From Syntrophorhabdaceae bacterium (GTDB taxonomy: Bacteria > Desulfobacterota > Syntrophorhabdia > Syntrophorhabdales > Syntrophorhabdaceae): a stretch of DNA of 64,000 nucleotides. The stretch lies in NCBI GenBank assembly GCA_963666485.2, contig CAXXUO010000001.1:672001-736000 (forward strand). The letters are read 5' to 3'. The stretch's first letter is position 1. Each line of letters begins with the position of its first letter. The notes under the pieces were generated by a model. That model was not told where the DNA came from, made no database searches, and was given only the letters and a program-made list of their open reading frames with translations. Positions 6,007 through 35,102 of the stretch are shown in pieces. A program made the position numbers and the translations under genes.

Positions 6007-6663
6007 TTATAAGACTAGTTTTTTGAACTCCTCAAAACCCAGCTGATCGATAAATGCGCCTATACGCTGTTTTGCCGTGCATTTTTCCTTGTAAACGGCT
6101 ATGACCTTGTCGATCATGGCCATGGCGTCTTCATCTGAAAGGTCGCGTGTGAGTTCCTGTGCGAGCCGCGGCTTCGCCCCGCCGCTTCCGCCGACGAACA
6201 GCCTCCAGCCGCTTTTTGACCCGACAAGACCGATATCCTTGATACAAGTCTCGGCACACTGGTTCGGGCATCCGCTCACACCGATCTTGAACTTGCTCGG
6301 GGTTTCGAAGCCGTGATACTTTTCATCGAGCTTAAACCCCATGCCGAGGCTGTCAAGCACCCCTCTTTTGCAGAAGGTCGTACCGGGGCACGCCTTTATG
6401 CTCCTGATACAGAGCCCGACTGCGGCCCCCGGCGTCATTTCCAGGTCCTTCCACACGGCATCGACCTCGTCCTCCTTCAGGCCGACGATCGCAATACGTG
6501 CCGCGCTCGTCACTTTCAGGGCCGCTGCCTTATATTTCTCCGCCACATCGGCGATCTTCCTCAGCGCGGCAGGGCTTACAACACCGCAGGGTATGTGCGG
6601 TGCGACCGCATACGTTTCCTTGTCCCGTTGAAGGATCACTCCTTTGTCTCCGTCTTGAAGCAT
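6007..6663 (-). CDS. Nitrite/sulfite reductase-like half-domain 4Fe-4S protein
   Basis: ILQRDKETYAVAPHIPCG, SIKACPGTTFCKRG, KFKIGVSGCPNQCAE, DIGLVG. Confidence 0.85.
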   Translation of the reverse strand: MLQDGDKGVILQRDKETYAVAPHIPCGVVSPAALRKIADVAEKYKAAALKVTSAARIAIVGLKEDEVDAVWKDLEMTPGAAVGLCIRSIKACPGTTFCKRGVLDSLGMGFKLDEKYHGFETPSKFKIGVSGCPNQCAETCIKDIGLVGSKSGWRLFVGGSGGAKPRLAQELTRDLSDEDAMAMIDKVIAVYKEKCTAKQRIGAFIDQLGFEEFKKLVL

Positions 6664-6770
6664 CGTTTTACCTCCTTCTTAACAGTGTGTTTGAGCCTGA
6701 CATTCAGATGCGAAGTTCTTATCTCCCGGAGTCTATCCCGAAGCCCTGAAAATAGCAATAAAATCTGTTA

Positions 6771-6793
6771 GGGGACGTCCTTAAGAAAGTAAG
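6771..6793 (+). repeat. 23-bp RAYT-flanking motif, left-type copy (GGGGACGTCCTTAAGAAAGTAAG)
   Basis: Exact reverse complement at 7936-7958 and 8033-8055; further copies at 31393-31831. Confidence 0.95.
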
Positions 6794-6802
6794 TAGTTGC
6801 TT

Positions 6803-7798
6803 TCAGAAAAGCTTTAAGCCTTTCATTTCGACTACAATCCTACCCCTTTTCACGGCGAGAACAATGGCAGGCGAGGAAACTTCAAAACGTTCAGCAAGGA
6901 CTTTCAAAGAGGCGCCAAGCTCCGTCACTGCGAAAAAGCAAAATACGCTTCTCGCCTCAGTAATTTTCTTGTATCTTCTGCGTGTATTAATATCCGCAGG
7001 CGATATCCCATAAATGTCACATATTCTTTTCTCTATACCCATAATGTCCAAGCCCGACTGTATCAATTCGTATCGCCGGTTCATTTTTTCTTCTGCCCGG
7101 GCGAGCAAATCCCGGACAAATGATTCGTCCCCCATGATACGTCTGTCATCCTTTAGGAATCCTTCCGGGTGTAACCTCCCGTCCTCGTGCCAGACCCCGG
7201 CAGTTCGGGCCCATCCCCCGGTGACTAGATCAGGTCGATGGCCTTGATCGACACCTGATTCGATAAATTTGTCATATGCGATCCGTGGTTTATTTTGAGC
7301 ACCAAATAAGTCGAGAATATACTCGATGTCCTGCCAGGTAACTTTTAGATTACCAAGAATAGTTGCGTGCCCTGACCAGGGAAACAATGCGAGATCTCGA
7401 TATTCTGGAACAATCCCTGCCCTGAGCGGATTAAGATGAATGTACCGCACCAGTTCTTTCAGGTAGGGCTCCTCCTGACAAATGATCGAGCGATAACGGT
7501 TCCGAAAAAGATGTCCTCTGCGAGCATGCCGCCGATTAAAACTCGCCGCATAACCCGTGAGAAGCCGACCCATAAAGGTAGCCAAAGGTACATCCCCCGT
7601 ACGAAGTAATAAATGCGCATGATTCGACAAAAGAACCCATGCATAGCAGACCGTTCCTGTTTCCGGAATAAGAACTGCTAGTCGTTTTGTGAAATCTGTT
7701 CTATCCGTATTATCGAGAAAGATGCTTGTTCCTGCAATTCCACGGATCATTACATGATGGAGCGCTCCTGTAGCATCAAGACGGGGCTGTCGCGGCAT
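6803..7798 (-). mobile_element. REP-associated tyrosine transposase (RAYT; HUH Y1 family) with C-terminal HTH extension
   Basis: MPRQPRL..HHVMIRG, HUH motif SNHAHLL, FNRRHARRGHLFRNRY, catalytic Tyr region VRYIHLNPLRAGIV, FPWSGH; more AT-rich than its neighbours; flanked by an inverted 23-bp motif. Confidence 0.88.
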
Positions 7799-7935
7799 AA
7801 TCACCTCTATTCTGGAATTTATTTTCCTGCCTTTTATGCATATTACTTTTTTCGGGCCAAAATGGGATCGGATTGGAAAAGAATGAAGAAGGGAGACGAT
7901 TTAAGGAACAGCGAAATCAGTGGGTGTGGGGGTTT

Positions 7936-8055
7936 CTTACTTTCTTAAGGACGTCCCCCTGGGCTACTCTTAAGGACGTCCCCCTGGGCTACTCTTAAGG
8001 ACGTCCCCCTGGGCTACTGGGCTCAAAAGTTTCTTACTTTCTTAAGGACGTCCCC
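7936..8055 (-). repeat. Right-type RAYT-flanking motif cluster with a 25-bp tandem triplication
   Basis: Full motif at 7936-7958 and 8033-8055; TCTTAAGGACGTCCCCCTGGGCTAC x3 at 7943-8017. Confidence 0.95.
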
Positions 8056-8082
8056 GGCTTTTTGTTATGCCTTTTTATGCTC

Positions 8083-10389
8083 CTACCCCTCAAAACGCAG
8101 GACGAATCTCGTTCCTTCCCGGTGTTCGACATGCATCTCGGCGCTGAGCTGTTCGGCCAGCATGGCGACGAGCTGAAGGCCAAGGCCTTCGGGGGTTTCG
8201 GGGCGGGTGGTTTGGGAAATACCAATACCGTTGTCGGCAATGGTCAGTATTTTATGGGTATTCTCTTCGGTCACCGATACGCTTATCACGCCTTCTCCGC
8301 CGCCAGCGAAGGCGTGCTTTAAAGAGTTCGTTACCAGTTCGTTGATGATAAGGCCGAGGGGGATCGCGGCGGTGATGTCGATGGTTACGTCTTTTATATC
8401 TGCCTGGATATTCTCCGGGGGGAACATGTGGGAGCGGGCGATCTGACGAACAAGCTCTTCCACATATTCCTTGAGGGCTATGCGCGAAAAATCGTCCGAT
8501 CCATAGAGCCTCGTGTGTATCTGTGTCAACGCGTTGATACGGTTGATACTTGTCAGGAAGACATCACGTGCATCCTTGTCGGTTATGCGGTCCAGCTGGA
8601 GCCTGAGAATGCTCGCAATGGTGAAGAGGTTATTCTTTACCCTGTGCTGTATCTCCTTCAGCAGGACATCTTTTTCCTTAAGAGAGGCCCTGATCTGCTC
8701 CTCCGATCTTTTGCGATCGGTTATATCTATAAAGATCTCGAGTTTTGAGATAGTCCCGTCCTGATTGAAGACCGGCGCATCAAAAAGATCATAGGTCCTG
8801 CCGGTTTTCATGGAATACCATTCCCACCGGACCGACCTCCCGAAGAAGACCTCGTCTCTCTTGCACCAGGGACACGCTTCATCCCGGTCATGGAAATAGG
8901 AGTAGCATGTGCGCCCGTTGACCGGCCCGAACTCCTTTTCGATGGCCGGATTGGTGTATTCAATACCGCAGTCGGGGTTGGAGATGTAGATGCCGTAGGG
9001 CATCGCATTGAGAATGGTGATCAATTTGTTCTTCTCGGATATCACGGCCTCGTGCGCCTTAACCTGCTCTGTAATATCGCTGACGGTCGTTATGAAAAAG
9101 CGGGGTCTATGCTCTGTATCGTAATACATAGCGACATAGACATCGGCCCATATGTGAGAGCCATCCTTGCGGATATATCTCTTGTAGAACCTGGTCGCAT
9201 CTTTTTCGCCTTTAAGAAGAAGGTCAAGGTGCTTCTGGATGACATCAACCTCTTCAGGAGGGGTCAGGTCCTGCCATTTTTTATTTTTCAATTCTTCCGG
9301 GCTGTAACCCAGCATATCGCGGAATGCCTTGTTGGTATTGATCTCGCCGGACAGAAGGGTGACTGATTTCCCGACATTGGCCAATTCAAAAACGAACTGG
9401 AATTTGGCGGCACTCTCGCTTAACATAGTGCGTACCGTCTCCACTTCAGCGATGAGAGGATGCGATGCATCCGGGGTCTCAGGCTCGGCAAGGGACGCAA
9501 CCGAGCGCCCCAGGCGCCGGCTGAACATTCTCCCGACAACGACGCTCACCACTGCAGCAAGAAATATAACCGCCAGCAGTGCCGCGATAGCGGATATTAC
9601 CGAAGAGTAGTATGTGCCGGGAGTAATATCGAGAACGATCGACCAGTAAGAAAGACCGGACTGTGCCGTGAATCTTTTCGCGCCGTGCCGGTTGTCATGC
9701 GTGTATGCTTTGCCAGCCGAACCTGCGCCCGCCATCGGTTCATTCTTGCCATCGAGCAGCGTGAGTGACCATCCGGGCGGTATCGCTACCTTTGCAAGAC
9801 GCCGCTCAAAGAGTCGCATATCCATTGCGCTTACAAGGAGAAACTGCAAATGCCCCCTGCGGAAAACGGGCACTACCACCGTTGTCAAGGGCACCTTCGC
9901 TATCGGCCCCATGAACATGTCCCCCACCGCCGGTTTGCCTGTTTGAAGCACTGCCGGCGCGGCTGCGTGGCCGCGTGGCCTCGGCAGCCGGGGCAGGTCC
10001 GCACCGAATGGCAGCCGTGTGTTGAGGAGCATTTGTGTATCAGTATCAGCAAGTACTAAATGGGAGCCAAAGCTTTCCCGGAAACCCTGGGCTTCACGAT
10101 AGAATTCCTTCAGCCGTGACCGGTCGTCAAGCAGGGGCGATGCCGCGAGGGCCTGCAAAGCGGCTATTTGCCCCTGGAGTTCCTGATCTACAACGGTCAT
10201 CGCGGTCATAGCCTGACCGGACGCCTGTTCGTCTATCCGCACTTTCAATCGTGCAATACGATGGGTCCCGAGGAAAATTGCCAGTATTACCAGGGGCACG
10301 ATGCTCAACCAGATGAGCCGGGTCAGGAATGTGCGCAGCGACAAAGCCTGCTTCATCTCCCCATGCTTTGTGTCTATTAACCGATCCAT
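8083..10389 (-). CDS. Membrane sensor histidine kinase (Cache-like sensor, PAS/PAC, HisKA_2-type core)
   Basis: Two TM helices, PAS motifs, LLKEIQHRVKNNL H-box, LIINELVTNSLKHAF, DNGIG, GLGLQLV. Confidence 0.9.
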   Translation of the reverse strand: MDRLIDTKHGEMKQALSLRTFLTRLIWLSIVPLVILAIFLGTHRIARLKVRIDEQASGQAMTAMTVVDQELQGQIAALQALAASPLLDDRSRLKEFYREAQGFRESFGSHLVLADTDTQMLLNTRLPFGADLPRLPRPRGHAAAPAVLQTGKPAVGDMFMGPIAKVPLTTVVVPVFRRGHLQFLLVSAMDMRLFERRLAKVAIPPGWSLTLLDGKNEPMAGAGSAGKAYTHDNRHGAKRFTAQSGLSYWSIVLDITPGTYYSSVISAIAALLAVIFLAAVVSVVVGRMFSRRLGRSVASLAEPETPDASHPLIAEVETVRTMLSESAAKFQFVFELANVGKSVTLLSGEINTNKAFRDMLGYSPEELKNKKWQDLTPPEEVDVIQKHLDLLLKGEKDATRFYKRYIRKDGSHIWADVYVAMYYDTEHRPRFFITTVSDITEQVKAHEAVISEKNKLITILNAMPYGIYISNPDCGIEYTNPAIEKEFGPVNGRTCYSYFHDRDEACPWCKRDEVFFGRSVRWEWYSMKTGRTYDLFDAPVFNQDGTISKLEIFIDITDRKRSEEQIRASLKEKDVLLKEIQHRVKNNLFTIASILRLQLDRITDKDARDVFLTSINRINALTQIHTRLYGSDDFSRIALKEYVEELVRQIARSHMFPPENIQADIKDVTIDITAAIPLGLIINELVTNSLKHAFAGGGEGVISVSVTEENTHKILTIADNGIGISQTTRPETPEGLGLQLVAMLAEQLSAEMHVEHREGTRFVLRFEG

Positions 10390-29401: not shown

Positions 29402-30619
29402 TTATTGCCTGTACTCTTTCAGAAAATCCGCCATCCTCTCCGCCACGGACTTGATCTCCTCGACGGTCGGCAGGAAGACGACGCGGAAGTGGTCGGGGTG
29501 AGGCCAGTTGAAACCGGACCCCTGCACCATCAGGACCTTTTTCTCCCTCAGGAAATCAAGAAGGAATTTTTGATCGTCATGAATGTTGTACATCTTCGTA
29601 TCGATCTTCGGAAACAGGTAGAGGGTACCCATCGGTTTCACGCTCGTGATGCCGGGTATCGCGGTAAAACCTTCATAAGCCGCCTTTCTCTGTTCATAGA
29701 GACGCCCGCCTGGGTTGATCATCTGCCGTAAGCTCTGGTATCCACCGAGTGCCGTCTGGATGGCGAGCTGGCCGGGCATGTTCCCGCACAGCCTCATGTT
29801 CGACAATATGTCGAGACCTTCCTCGATGTAGTCCTTCGCATGGCCCTTTTTCCCGCTGACGATCATCCACCCCGCGCGCATGCCGGGGATGCGGTGGGAC
29901 TTGGAAAGCCCGTTGAACGTCACGATAAAAAGCTCATTGGTCAACGAGGCGAAGGGGTAATGCTTTGCATCGTCGTAAAGGATCTGGTCGTATATCTCGT
30001 CGGCAAAAACGATGAGATCGTGCTCGACGGCCATCTTCATGATCTTCTCGAGGACCTCGAGCGGGTACACGGCGCCGGTCGGGTTGTTCGGGTTGATGAG
30101 CACTATGCCCCGCGTCCGGCGCGAGATCTTCGATTCCATGTCCTTGACGTCCGGGACCCAGTCCGATTCCTCGTCACAGATATAATGGACCGCCTTGCCG
30201 CCCGAGAGCGTCACCGCCGCCGTCCACAGGGGATAGTCCGGTGTCGGCACGAGCATTTCGTCCCCGTTGTTCAAAAGCCCCTGCATGGCCATGACGATCA
30301 TCTCGGACACGCCGTTGCCAATGTAGATGTCCTCGATCTCGACGCCCTCGATGCCCTTCAGCTGGCATTGCTGCATAATTGCCTTCCGGGCCGCGAAAAG
30401 CCCTTTCGAATCGCCGTACGCCTGCGCCGACCGTATGTTAAGCACTATATCGTGGATTATCTCATCCGGCGCATTGAGGCCGAAAATGGGAGGATTGCCG
30501 CTGTTGAGCTTTATTATGGTATATCCCTCGTCTTCGAGCCGCTTCGCTTCCTTGAGGAGCGGCCCGCGGATCTCGTAGCAGATATTCTCCATTTTGTTCG
30601 ACTTCATTATCTTACGCAT
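29402..30619 (-). CDS. alaA: PLP-dependent aminotransferase class I (AlaA/YfbQ type)
   Basis: YEIRGP, YGDSKGLFAARKAI, IGNGVSEMI, PDYPLWTAA, INPNNPTGAVY, FNGLSK, DHFRVVFLP. Confidence 0.9.
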   Translation of the reverse strand: MRKIMKSNKMENICYEIRGPLLKEAKRLEDEGYTIIKLNSGNPPIFGLNAPDEIIHDIVLNIRSAQAYGDSKGLFAARKAIMQQCQLKGIEGVEIEDIYIGNGVSEMIVMAMQGLLNNGDEMLVPTPDYPLWTAAVTLSGGKAVHYICDEESDWVPDVKDMESKISRRTRGIVLINPNNPTGAVYPLEVLEKIMKMAVEHDLIVFADEIYDQILYDDAKHYPFASLTNELFIVTFNGLSKSHRIPGMRAGWMIVSGKKGHAKDYIEEGLDILSNMRLCGNMPGQLAIQTALGGYQSLRQMINPGGRLYEQRKAAYEGFTAIPGITSVKPMGTLYLFPKIDTKMYNIHDDQKFLLDFLREKKVLMVQGSGFNWPHPDHFRVVFLPTVEEIKSVAERMADFLKEYRQ

Positions 30620-30698
30620 ATGTCTATCTTTTCCCATCATTTCTTTTCGGCGCTCAAGCCGTTCATAATTATCGGGAAAACTGACGAAATTGTCAATT

Positions 30699-30834
30699 GT
30701 TCCACGTTCCAGGTTCCACGTTCCACGAAAAAACCTTAAAAAAACACCTTAAAAAATCGTATAGCGCGTTTCGCAACAATAAGATTATTTCAGGCTTCTT
30801 TCTCGTGGAACGTGGAACGTGGAACGTGGAACCG
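30699..30834. repeat. Inverted heptamer-array element (TTCCACG / CGTGGAA)
   Basis: Four units at 30699-30727, AT-rich spacer, four inverted units at 30804-30831. Confidence 0.95.
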
Positions 30835-30843
30835 TTTTTTTAT

Positions 30844-31149
30844 CTATTTCGCCTGCCCGTACGTTCCTTTATGGTTGATCATGGGATAGGAAACTTTGGG
30901 GGAATGGGAGGCGCGGTCTTTCATCTTTTCCCGATCAGCCGCGGTAGTGCCGGAGTCATTCTTCTGCGATGCCTTGTTGCTCCTCGCTATATAGTCCTGG
31001 TACCCGGGGTCTGCCGCCGTCCCCGCATACTTATAGTACTCCTTGGGTGTGGTTTTCACAGTTTCAGCCGCGTAACAGAAACCGGTGGAGACGAGGGTTG
31101 CCAGAAGAACTGCTGCGCTCAGGATCCTTTTCATTGTTGTGTCCTCCAT
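30844..31149 (-). CDS. Small secreted hypothetical protein (true start may be the MKRILS ATG)
   Basis: Signal peptide MKRILSAAVLLATLV..CYA. Confidence 0.7.
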   Translation of the reverse strand: MEDTTMKRILSAAVLLATLVSTGFCYAAETVKTTPKEYYKYAGTAADPGYQDYIARSNKASQKNDSGTTAADREKMKDRASHSPKVSYPMINHKGTYGQAK

Positions 31150-31198
31150 GTTTTTTCTTAGTAGGACAAGCGATAAAAGAAAAAGTTCCCTGAAAAAC

Positions 31199-32066
31199 CG
31201 TAGGGCGTGAGAGCGTAAGGCGTAAGGCGTTAAAAGACAAAGACACTGGATTCCGGCAAACCGGAATGACGGTGTTTTTGTTATTTCAGGTATCGGGAAG
31301 TATTGAGTCGGGTGCCATAGTCAACATTTGCGTTGACAACCAGTCTCCCGGTTAAGCTCGTTAAACTGTAAAGGCAAAGGGGACGAGGCAAAGGGGACGT
31401 CCTTAAGAAAGTAAGTAACTTAAGATTACCCGGTCCGGGGATAATAACGACAGGGCGGTCCGTTTAGTTGTTTGAGGAGTTTCTTACTTTCTTAAGGACG
31501 TCCCTCACATTTTTCCGGAAGGTTTGACAATGAATGAGTGGCAGTTGATATCCCTCTGCGATTGGAGTGTCTTACACTGAAACAATCTTAACCGGAAGAC
31601 CGTGACTCTTCATTTATGAGTCTGTAGGAGTAGGGGGACGAGGAGTAGGGGGACGTCCTTAAGAAAGTAAGTAACTTTATCCCTCGATCAATTTAAGCCT
31701 CTTGCCCAACTACCGGATAATCAATTCCGTGATAATTACCCTATGACCGACTCTAAATATTTTGACTTTTCTTACTTTCTTAAGGACGTCCCCCTCGATT
31801 TTCCTTTTCTTACTTTCTTAAGGACGTCCCCCTCGATTTTCATTACACCCGCCGTCATCCCGGGCTTGACCCGGGACCCAAGGTTTTGTTTTTTTGATTC
31901 TTTTCTCATTTGGTCGTTGCTAAAAGGAACAAAAGAAAAACCTTGGGTCCCGGCTCGGAGGCCGGGATGACGGAGAGAGCGAAGGGATGACGGGGTTGGA
32001 GGAATTGCGACACCGTCTCTTCGCGGGAAGACAACAGGGAAATCCCTTTACGCCTTACGCCTTACG
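31199..32066. repeat. Nested intergenic repeat cluster (heptamer arms, REP hairpins, RAYT-motif pairs)
   Basis: CGTAAGG arm at 31199-31230 and inverted arm at 32048-32066; REP at 31239, 31853, 31941; RAYT motif at 31393, 31483, 31649, 31771, 31809. Confidence 0.93.
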
Positions 32067-32070
32067 ATCT

Positions 32071-33417
32071 TTAAATGACCGTCTCTTCCCCCGTTCTCGA
32101 CTCGAATATCCGGTAGTCGTCGTGTACGCGGTCCTGGAGGTAGATGTGATCACCGTTTCTCTTTTTCTTCAGCGCGTCGTACTCGGCGAGGGCGCGCGAT
32201 ACGCAGTCCGGGCAGCAGGCGGCGGGTATCGCGATGCAGTCAACGGAGTAGTTACGGCCGCTCTTGTGCGCACAGCCGGATGATATGCGGCGGAATCCGC
32301 AGCAGGTAGGGCACATCCGCAAGTCAAGCCTCTGCTCTTCCTGCAGATATTCCGTATCGTAAAAGATGCTCCGCGACATGCCCCAGAATTCACGGCCCTC
32401 TTTCCGGTTCTTTTCTACCACCGCAGGCCCGCCGCGAAAGGCGGTTAGCTGGTGGTCGACGAGGGATTTGATATATGTCCAGTTTTTCGGGGATTCCTTG
32501 AACCGTGAGGGGTCATAGTCCGGCTCCTTGAGGTTCGAGAAATCTATTCCGGCCATGGCCATGATGATCCCCATGTTGACATAGGGCAACGCGGTCTCTA
32601 TGGAGTAGCCGCCTTCGAGCACGGCAATATCGGGCTTGAGCTTCTGGTTGAGGACCGCGTAGCCCTGCGCGGTGAAGCTCATGTTTGCGAGCGGGTCACT
32701 GTAATGGTTGTCCTGTCCGGCGGAGTTTATGATGATCTCCGGCTTGAACTCGTCAAGTATCGGCAGGACCAGGTTGTCTATTATGTAATGAATGCCCTCA
32801 TCCGTGGTCCTGGGCGCCATCGGTATGTTGATCGTCGTCCCGTACGCGAGCGGGCCTCCGAGCTCGTCGACAAATCCTGATCCCGGGTAGAGCGTCCGGC
32901 CGTCCTGGTGGAACGAAATGAAGAGAACGTCGGGATCGTGCCAGAATATCTCCTGCGTCCCGTCCCCGTGGTGCACGTCCGTGTCCACGATGGCGAGACG
33001 CTTGACGCCGTACGTGCGGCGCAGGTACTCGACCATGACCGCTTCGTTGTTTATGTCGCAAAACCCCCGGTTTCCGTGAACGACCGTCATGGCATGATGT
33101 CCCGGCGGACGAATGATGGCGAAGGCATTCTTGATCTCTTTTTTCATGTACGCATCGGCCATAACGAGGGCGCAGCCCGCCGACACCATGTGCGCGGTCG
33201 TGACGCGGCTTTCGATGTCGGGAACGCAGAAATGGATGCGCGACACGTCTTTGGGCGTCGCGAGCCGGGGATGGTACTCCGTTATTTCCGGCATGTCCAT
33301 GATGCCTTCCTCGAAAAGCTGGTCGCGCGTATAGAGGAGCCTCTCTTCCCTTTCGGGGTGCGTCGGACTAATGGCCCAGTCAAAGGCGGGGAAAAATATC
33401 AGACCTGTCGTTTTCAA
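32071..33417 (-). CDS. Histone deacetylase-family (Zn-dependent amidohydrolase) protein with Cys-rich C-terminus
   Basis: THPEREER, RPPGHHA, GFC, DTDVHHGDGTQ, YPGSG, SAGQD, LEGGY. Confidence 0.93.
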   Translation of the reverse strand: MKTTGLIFFPAFDWAISPTHPEREERLLYTRDQLFEEGIMDMPEITEYHPRLATPKDVSRIHFCVPDIESRVTTAHMVSAGCALVMADAYMKKEIKNAFAIIRPPGHHAMTVVHGNRGFCDINNEAVMVEYLRRTYGVKRLAIVDTDVHHGDGTQEIFWHDPDVLFISFHQDGRTLYPGSGFVDELGGPLAYGTTINIPMAPRTTDEGIHYIIDNLVLPILDEFKPEIIINSAGQDNHYSDPLANMSFTAQGYAVLNQKLKPDIAVLEGGYSIETALPYVNMGIIMAMAGIDFSNLKEPDYDPSRFKESPKNWTYIKSLVDHQLTAFRGGPAVVEKNRKEGREFWGMSRSIFYDTEYLQEEQRLDLRMCPTCCGFRRISSGCAHKSGRNYSVDCIAIPAACCPDCVSRALAEYDALKKKRNGDHIYLQDRVHDDYRIFESRTGEETVI

Positions 33418-35102
33418 TTCTCCACCCCCTTGAATTCATGGATAAACCCGGGAGATATCTGGATCCCTACATCAAACAGCTTCCCTTCCTGCTCCCAGCC
33501 CCGGATCACGTTGAACTGCTCCTCGCTGTATATCTGGGCATCGTCTGCGTAATCGCTGAGGCCGCGGTCTTCGCATACCTGTTTAAGACAGCCGAGCGCC
33601 AACTCCCTGGCATCCTTGAGCTGGTAGTTGCGCTTGTTCACCTTTCCGCTTAAGCCCCCCGGCGAACCAGAATATGTTTCCCGCCCCGTATCGATATGGA
33701 CCTCGACGGCAAGCGTCGGCCGCGCAACCGCTGCGCCGAGGGCATTGGCCACGGGCGACAGGCGGTGGAGAAAATGCGGGACCTTCATGCGTTCGGCAAG
33801 CATCGGCACGATGGCCGGTGCGGCCGCGCCGATCCCGATCACCTGGTGCAGGTGGAACTCCCTTTTATGAACGACCTCCCACACCTTGTACGCCGGTTCG
33901 TCCTCCCACTGTCTGAACATGTCCTCGATGCTCTGTTCAAGCCTCCGGGCGACCTCATCGGCGACGGTGCGGCAAAGTGTATCGATCGGCATTTTCAAAG
34001 CATCGGCCACGGGGCTTAACGCCGCGTGCGAGGCTTGCGGATTCCCGAGGCCCAGGCTGCTTATGATATTGAAGGCATCGGTCACTGTCGGGGCCTCGCC
34101 GCCAAGACAGGCTGCGGGGCCGAGCCTCATCGGGCCTATTTCGAGTTGTCCATCCTTCACATGCACCGTGCTGTCCCCGCCGAGAGGTATGGAGCTTACG
34201 GCGAACGAGTTGACATGTGTCAGGTGCCCGGCGATAAGCGCCCCGCGCGAGGCATAAAGCGGCTGCCCCTCGATAAGAAGGCTTATGTCGGATGTTGTCC
34301 CGCCGATGTCTATCGAAACGGCGTTGAGCTCTTCACGGCTCAATGCCAGTGTTCCCATCGTGCTTGCCGCGGGGCCGGAAAAAACGGTTTCGCAGGGACG
34401 CTTGCGGCTTGCCGCGAGCGTCGTCGTCCCGCCGTCCGCCTTCAATATGTGAAGCTCGCAATGCGGCACGCGCGCCATGATCGCGGCCTCCATATCGTCT
34501 GCAAAGAGGTTCCACTGGCGGATGGTCATCGCCGTGTAATAACACGTCACGGCGCGCCGGGGAAAATTGAGCCGTCCCGAGATCTCGTTGCTCGTGCAGA
34601 CGTCCATGTGGGGATAGAGGGATTCGGCCATGTTTTTCAGGGCCTTCTCGTGTGCGTCGTTGCGGTTCGAGAACTTTCCCGCGATCGCGACCCGTTCGAT
34701 CCCGGACGCGTGGATCTTTTTTAACGCGTCCTCCATTTCTTTGGGATCGGGCGCCTCTATCTGCCTGCCCCTGAAATCGATCCAACCCTTGAGAAAGTAC
34801 GTGTCAGGACTGATGTCATATGCCGATTCGGGCAGGCCTTTCCCCGGCAGGAGAATGAGGGCTGTTCGCTCCCCCCTCCCGGTGGCGAGCAGGTTCGTCA
34901 CGAGGGTCGTGCTGAGCACTATTCTCCTGATATCCTTTGCCTGCCTGTGTGCAAGGAGGTCGTCGAGAATGAGAAGCAAGGTCGCTTCGAGATCATCCTC
35001 GTCCGTCCTGTGCTTCACGCTGTGCACGACCGATCCTTCACTGAAGAGGACCCCGTCTGTATATGTCCCGCCAACGTCTATTCCGATCAACGCGTCATTC
35101 AT
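33414..35102 (-). CDS. Hydantoinase/oxoprolinase (subunit A-like) family protein
   Basis: IGIDVGGTYTD, STTLVTN, FSGPAAS, DIGGTTSD, PTVTDA, ANALGAA. Confidence 0.9.
   Translation of the reverse strand: MNDALIGIDVGGTYTDGVLFSEGSVVHSVKHRTDEDDLEATLLLILDDLLAHRQAKDIRRIVLSTTLVTNLLATGRGERTALILLPGKGLPESAYDISPDTYFLKGWIDFRGRQIEAPDPKEMEDALKKIHASGIERVAIAGKFSNRNDAHEKALKNMAESLYPHMDVCTSNEISGRLNFPRRAVTCYYTAMTIRQWNLFADDMEAAIMARVPHCELHILKADGGTTTLAASRKRPCETVFSGPAASTMGTLALSREELNAVSIDIGGTTSDISLLIEGQPLYASRGALIAGHLTHVNSFAVSSIPLGGDSTVHVKDGQLEIGPMRLGPAACLGGEAPTVTDAFNIISSLGLGNPQASHAALSPVADALKMPIDTLCRTVADEVARRLEQSIEDMFRQWEDEPAYKVWEVVHKREFHLHQVIGIGAAAPAIVPMLAERMKVPHFLHRLSPVANALGAAVARPTLAVEVHIDTGRETYSGSPGGLSGKVNKRNYQLKDARELALGCLKQVCEDRGLSDYADDAQIYSEEQFNVIRGWEQEGKLFDVGIQISPGFIHEFKGVEN

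Follow-up and report, generated by a model that had tools for sequence, protein, structure and literature searches.

The window, by which we mean the whole 64,000-nt stretch of DNA analysed here, carries an element that we assign to TnpAY1 subclass 2.1, the already described TIRtron/TIRYT class. The reading we favour, at a probability of about 0.58, is that its enzyme grips the terminal inverted repeat (TIR) by its HTH domain and nicks the inward-running strand some 5-12 nt outside it, after which extension and resealing would follow. The seemingly novel part is a set of tandem duplications across the outer junctions of the TIRs. Such duplications at TIRtron ends are not described in the literature found, a set that leaves most subscription papers outside its scope, and Figure 9/Additional file 5 of PMC3733652 could show flanks of this kind.

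The two TIRs of the gene unit match perfectly over 23 bp, and 100 shuffles gave a chance expectation of 0.00 for copies of the 23-mer. We recovered the arrangement described in the earlier note, with one copy just past the stop codon of the ORF and inverted copies upstream, two in full and two in part (Table 1). The partial copies are indeed present, 16 nt long, at 7968-7983 and 7993-8008. However, they belong to a 3 × 25-bp tandem that includes outside flank, its unit being made of 9-10 nt of that flank and 15-16 nt of TIR. The reported difference between the two inner ends extends to the whole genome, where 22 of 40 copies are TA-type (-TA..), 17 are AAA-type (-AAA.) and 1 is neither. Since a single repeat, folded as DNA, is predicted to reach only -0.7 and -0.2 kcal/mol, it is not a REP hairpin, in agreement with the earlier note. 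Beyond the tandem, at 8019-8055, the inward continuation of the outermost TIR resembles the short promoter-bearing upstream ends of loci L005 and L007 and is unlike the element's own inner end. A promoter scan of 6650-8150 returned nothing at the 5' end of the TIRYT gene. Short palindromes within the TIR, GGACGTCC among them, had been suggested as a signal. We dropped them as a recognition signal because their conservation is absent among homologues: GGACGTCC is not kept, and TIR position 9 is C in 31% and position 10 in 55%.

Table 1. Coordinates of the features found in the window.
Feature	Position	Strand	Remarks
Downstream TIR, TA-type inner end	6771..6793	+	9 nt past stop codon of TIRYT gene
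TIRYT gene, Y1 HUH nuclease with DnaA-domain-IV-like HTH	6803..7804	-	333 aa; homologues align from ATG at 7798
Upstream TIR, AAA-type inner end	7936..7958	-	Exact reverse complement of 6771-6793
3 × 25-bp tandem over TIR outer junction	7943..8018	-	Putative enzyme scar
Outermost full TIR copy, other inner continuation	8033..8055	-	Exact reverse complement
Outer MITE of another kind, hosts type A pair	31313..31625	+	Own imperfect inverted ends; right end missing in window
Gene-less TIR pair, type A, 113 bp	31393..31505	+	14-bp junction duplication (-7 to +7); 11 genome copies
Gene-less TIR pair, type B, 145 bp	31649..31841	+	15-bp duplication at left end (-8 to +7), 38-bp at right end (-10 to +28); 3 genome copies

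The encoded protein has the HUH motif, the catalytic Tyr region and the C-terminal HTH ascribed to it. Y1_Tnp (Pfam) matches residues 17-123 with 27.1 bits, above the cut-off of 23; NHAH occupies residues 61-64 and RYIHLNP residues 120-126, and H62, H64 and Y121 are invariant in the homologue alignment. The HTH tail covers approximately residues 250-328, where Bac_DnaA_C matches residues 257-310 with 30 bits (E 5e-7), just below its Pfam cut-off of 31.5, and a separate DnaA match has an E of 3e-4. The predicted structure, built with 14 sequences and with a mean pLDDT of 77.9, has helices at 279-296 and 311-328. Its best match in a fold search was TnpAREP (4er8, E 2e-5), with the DnaA domain IV structures 1j1v and 3pvp lower in the list. 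The NHAH signature is shared with 28 of the 98 homologues in the clade. At residue 101, the window copy reads FR whereas 92 of 98 homologues read FQ, and this Q101R change is one of seven deviations at 86 conserved columns, as many being found in 13 of the 98 homologues. Given these changes the window's copy may be impaired, in which case the scars described below may be the work of another copy or of an ancestor.

Protein matches were found in 48 of 61 related genomes at an E of 0.001 and in 72 of 301 genomes of the phylum at 1e-60, the named relatives being Syntrophorhabdus and other deltaproteobacterial MAGs. The flank comparison started from 140 loci, of which 135 were distinct and nearly complete; enough flank was available at 121, the window's own included. 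An inverted pair scoring at least 14 flanks the gene at 100 of these 121 loci vs 12 of 400 mismatched cross pairs, which shows that homologous RAYTs carry flanking motifs of their own. At the 99 loci with a GGGAC core, the TIR consists of a near-fixed GGGACG and then about 18 variable bases shared by both ends of a locus; between these ends, identity is 0.75-1.0 at positions 8-25 and reaches background by +29, and the inner TIR has an 8-bp period (0.48, against 0.31 when shuffled). The window's own 23-bp TIR, with one mismatch, is found in 3 of 60 related genomes. A metagenome scan gave four loci only, and the viral contigs searched with the TIR pattern gave no match.

The two ends of homologous loci also differ in their surroundings. 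TTGAC adjoins the TIR at 54 of 99 upstream ends vs 4 of 99 downstream ends, and the start codon mostly lies 52-68 nt from the TIR start, suggesting a promoter beside the predicted binding site at the upstream TIR, which would partly explain the polarity of the ends. The window copy has a longer leader and no TTGAC box.

Our data weakly support the idea that the predicted recognition helix of the HTH reads the TIR. With overall distance removed, divergence of the inner TIR correlated best with residues 311-321 (r 0.39), then with 284-294 (r 0.35) and third with 46-56 (r 0.30), a window inside the HUH domain, the compared pairs not being independent. Residues 309-321 hold 10 of the top 30 mutual-information pairs with the TIR, yet a sister-pair test of residue-base pairing found none significant over 5296 tests. 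The absence of dsDNA binding by E. coli TnpAREP (PMC3333891) counts against a reading of dsDNA here.

At up to three mismatches, the source genome contains 42 matches to the TIR. Outside the TIRYT locus these are, bar one degenerate copy, the ends of 15 gene-less pairs of 104-145 bp, comprising 11 of type A (113-114 bp, with insides 85-100% alike), three of type B (145 bp) and one of type C. Nearly all of them join one TA-type to one AAA-type end, as the gene unit does and as would be expected of internally deleted derivatives of gene units; a comparison of their insides with the homologous loci gave zero matches and thus no parent units. Besides those at the TIRYT locus, the window holds five more TIR copies at 31393-31831. 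The MITE around the type A pair is roughly 330 bp long and has 7-bp duplications at two other loci (C1:1098245-1098573 and C1:1230431-1230759). Because an arm of this MITE accompanies 9 of the 11 type A elements, part of their spread may not be the work of the TIRYT enzyme; the arm is absent from types B and C and from the two other type A copies, and in five copies the left arm of the MITE is trimmed to 10-14 nt outside the TIR. The intergenic intervals 30690-30840, 31195-31275 and 31845-31990 of the window are dense in other repeats, among which palindromic units are abundant and 7-bp tandem runs occur, and several TIR elements lie in or beside these crowded spaces. At C4:149070-149190, a type A element adjoins what by eye looks like an IS110-type transposase gene of which only the start is left, the two meeting about 11 nt outside the TIR.

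A second TIRYT paralogue in the source genome, 46% identical, comes with a TIR variant of its own, copies of which are also scattered. It lies in an accessory stretch (C2:649500-661500, L204) that holds about ten TIR-like ends, duplicated segments of 107-300 bp and genes named by eye as two phosphatase-like, one ATPase-like, one HNH-like and one glycosylase-like. The proposal of a cognate enzyme-repeat system is thus supported, given the homologous loci, a paralogue with a different TIR and the dispersed gene-less pairs.

Perfect tandem duplications spanning the outer TIR junction were found at 10 of 44 TIR copies in the source genome and at 28 of 196 homologue ends, among which related genomes occur, so the samples are not independent. 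The controls lay at 0-1.5% overall: among shifted anchors there were 0-3 in 195-198, among other GGGACG sites 6 in 3016, and among random sites 17 in 5000. The outer boundary of the duplications falls at -4 to -16, with a peak at -9 to -10, and the inner boundary at +1 to +61, often at +7. All 16 duplications of at least 20 bp have their outer boundary at -16 to -5 and their inner end anywhere inside; under uniform placement, the probability of such confinement of the outer boundary is about 1e-7, with a test range set after the data were seen. The end duplications likely mark the position and strand of the cut, and they point to 4-16 nt outside the TIR rather than to a cut within the motif, as the earlier note had supposed. 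Duplications lying wholly outside the TIR, found at 8 of 196 ends (controls 0-1 of 193-194), speak against a single fixed nick and in favour of varied cut sites or a very short extension. One gene-less TIR pair is recorded more than once (L089 and L091, also L040), with a 43-bp junction duplication in one record only, an allele or assembly difference.

In the established chemistry of HUH enzymes, a nick yields a 5'-phosphotyrosine and a 3'-OH. In the mechanism we favour, the HTH domain would likely grip each inverted repeat, and the enzyme would probably nick the inward-running strand beyond it, at a distance of about 5-12 nt. That cut would attach the enzyme through Tyr121 to the 5' end of the element and leave a free 3'-OH on the flank. 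Host polymerase would extend this 3'-OH into the element, and the new 3' end would attack the phosphotyrosine, producing a tandem duplication whose outer boundary is narrow and whose inner one varies. An inward-strand nick is favoured because a nick on the outward strand would duplicate the flank only, while the junction-spanning pattern prevails 28 to 8. Should the 3'-OH ends of a target attack both element ends instead, insertion of the unit, or of a derivative without the gene, would result, with 6-13 nt of flank carried along and sometimes a long variable duplication. A route of nicking, extension and resealing has been put forward for TnpAREP/BIME amplification (PMC3333891, Fig. 7B legend).

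The unit is absent from relatives. In a wastewater contig with about 88% similarity, 6677 is connected to 8074 through 119 other letters in place of the unit. In two related genomes, neither of them a clean empty site, similarity ends at 6766 (G011) and 6763 (G015), which leaves 5-8 nt to the TIR, and beyond that end the G011 sequence is unrelated. Orthologous intergenic stretches of the gene-less elements in G011, G007 and G009 are without a TIR and too diverged to place the ends, and reads over 29500-33500 gave no interpretable joint. At one homologous locus (L207:2780-4420, whose scaffold contains a run of N), a repeat-rich RHS-like gene is interrupted by a whole TIRtron, which lies within a perfect duplication of 250 bp and has 6 nt of additional sequence beyond each TIR. 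In the source genome, one duplication of 17 bp on C6 has its ends at -11 and -13, and others of 40 and 102 bp (C1, C2) abut -9 and -10. A classical target duplication of fixed length was dropped from consideration, as a flanking direct repeat was found at only 2 of 99 homologous loci and none around the window element.

The strongest competitor, which we nevertheless consider unlikely, is a REPIN-like route in which the two TIRs pair as a stem on exposed ssDNA, the HTH binds this stem and the cut by the HUH domain falls at its foot, so that chromosomal dsDNA is not the substrate. Stems predicted for the gene-less pairs have folding energies of -23 to -30 kcal/mol, the relatives that have been characterised work on ssDNA, and a cut 5' of the stem foot would yield identical scar geometry. 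Such a stem would, however, require a 1.14-kb loop in the autonomous unit, and TIR copies of the second paralogue that have no close partner also carry junction duplications (C2:652482 and C4:210714). In addition, the 8-bp tandem boxes and the adjacent TTGAC resemble a dsDNA operator.

The duplications could also have come from slippage of host polymerase at fold-back stems or G runs, with the TIRs acting mainly as operators and spreading by hitch-hiking in other MITEs while the enzyme copy is inactive or domesticated. We regard this as improbable. The arm of the outer MITE on most type A copies and the Q101R change fit such an account, as do flanks that are G-rich at -6 to -11, and at least 3 nt of microhomology accompanies 10 of 29 duplications at homologue-set ends. 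Against it, microhomology is 0-1 nt in 12 of the same 29 and 0 nt in 6 of 10 duplications in the source genome, and the outer boundary stays confined even for units of 40-71 bp. Also against slippage and hitch-hiking are the absence of whole units from relatives, the unit inside the 250-bp duplication with its 6-nt ends, and the elements that have no outer arm, namely types B and C along with two of type A. That the tandem copies are assembly artefacts at repeats is hardly credible: most homologues come from metagenome assemblies and the L207 scaffold has its N run, but unitigs from two runs of one sample, which may be the source sample, break at 7972 and 7989, as at a real repeat, and are identical to the window up to the first and from the second, and the geometry is the same at 28 ends in genomes assembled separately.

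Beyond the inward-strand nick followed by extension and resealing, we tentatively propose, at somewhat less than even odds, that TIRYTs use a distinct mode of transposition. The HTH would read dsDNA inverted ends, the HUH domain would nick about one helix turn outside, and the 5' ends of the element would be joined to target 3'-OH, the reverse of DDE polarity. This would give rise to carried flanks, to tandem scars and to target duplications that vary in length up to 250 bp, with the recognition helix setting each TIR. If true, an HUH transposase working from dsDNA inverted ends with long variable duplications would add a route of transposition and, with it, a way for genes to be duplicated and adjacent DNA to be deleted. 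About 15% of strains are reported to have subclass 2.1 (PMC6006769), and no biochemistry on TIRYT was found in the literature searched, where the term appears in just two separate works. For this known class, the scars yield sharp predictions of which strand, which 5-12 nt window and which helix, and the two paralogues with different TIRs in the source genome offer a built-in specificity swap.

Among known systems, two were dropped as classifications. An assignment to REPtrons or RAYT groups 2-3 disagrees with the folding of the single repeat (-0.7 kcal/mol) and with an NF047646 score of 52.6 vs a cut-off of 80, and IS200/IS605 with the 333 aa, YIHLNP, HTH tail and inverted ends, in contrast to a short core-only TnpA, Y---Q and subterminal hairpins. 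Replitron-1 of Chlamydomonas (bioRxiv 10.1101/2022.12.15.520654) is likewise an HUH transposon with carried flank ('fuzzy ends') and target duplications of variable length; it serves as an analogy only, being eukaryotic and of a separate Rep lineage, with short direct terminal repeats and one fuzzy end. TnpAREP and REPIN-BIME systems (4er8; PMC3333891, PMC8266576, PMC3116915) share the HUH core, gene-less inverted pairs and the nick-extend-reseal model, whereas the window system has no GTAG tag or single-repeat hairpin, has an extra HTH and appears to move as a whole gene unit.

TIRtrons and TIRYTs were named by Di Nocera, De Gregorio and Rocco in 2013 (PMC3733652), whose text does not give a cut site or a junction or target duplication. 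Both there and here, a RAYT-like tyrosine transposase gene lies between long TIRs, not REPs, the TIR starts with a G run, and TIR families are moderately abundant, with dimers and clusters. The TIR start is GGGGACG in the window vs GGGGWSAS, the motif of most TIRtrons, with six of eight positions in agreement (GGGGAC, then GT for AS), and the same paper allows TIRs unrelated to that motif. The window element shows the Y1 HUH domain with its catalytic Tyr, long non-GTAG TIRs and a dispersed TIR family (42 copies, 15 gene-less pairs). Its enzyme fits TnpAY1 subclass 2.1, more precisely 2.1.2 by its Bac_DnaA_C tail (PMC6006769), which equals the Group 1 RAYTs of Bertels (PMC5581495). It departs from the subclass in having NHAH and FR where NH[VYF]H and W[EQ]/FQ are given (PMC6006769). 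HTH recognition of the TIR was raised and doubted by Quentin in 2018 (PMC6006769), and our data lean weakly the opposite way. In common with subclass 2.1 and Group 1 (PMC6006769, PMC5581495), the window system has Y[IV]HLNP, as YIHLNP, a Bac_DnaA_C-like C-terminal HTH and no REP, and it comes from the deltaproteobacteria, where these enzymes are common, with few divergent copies per genome (two here, 46% identical).
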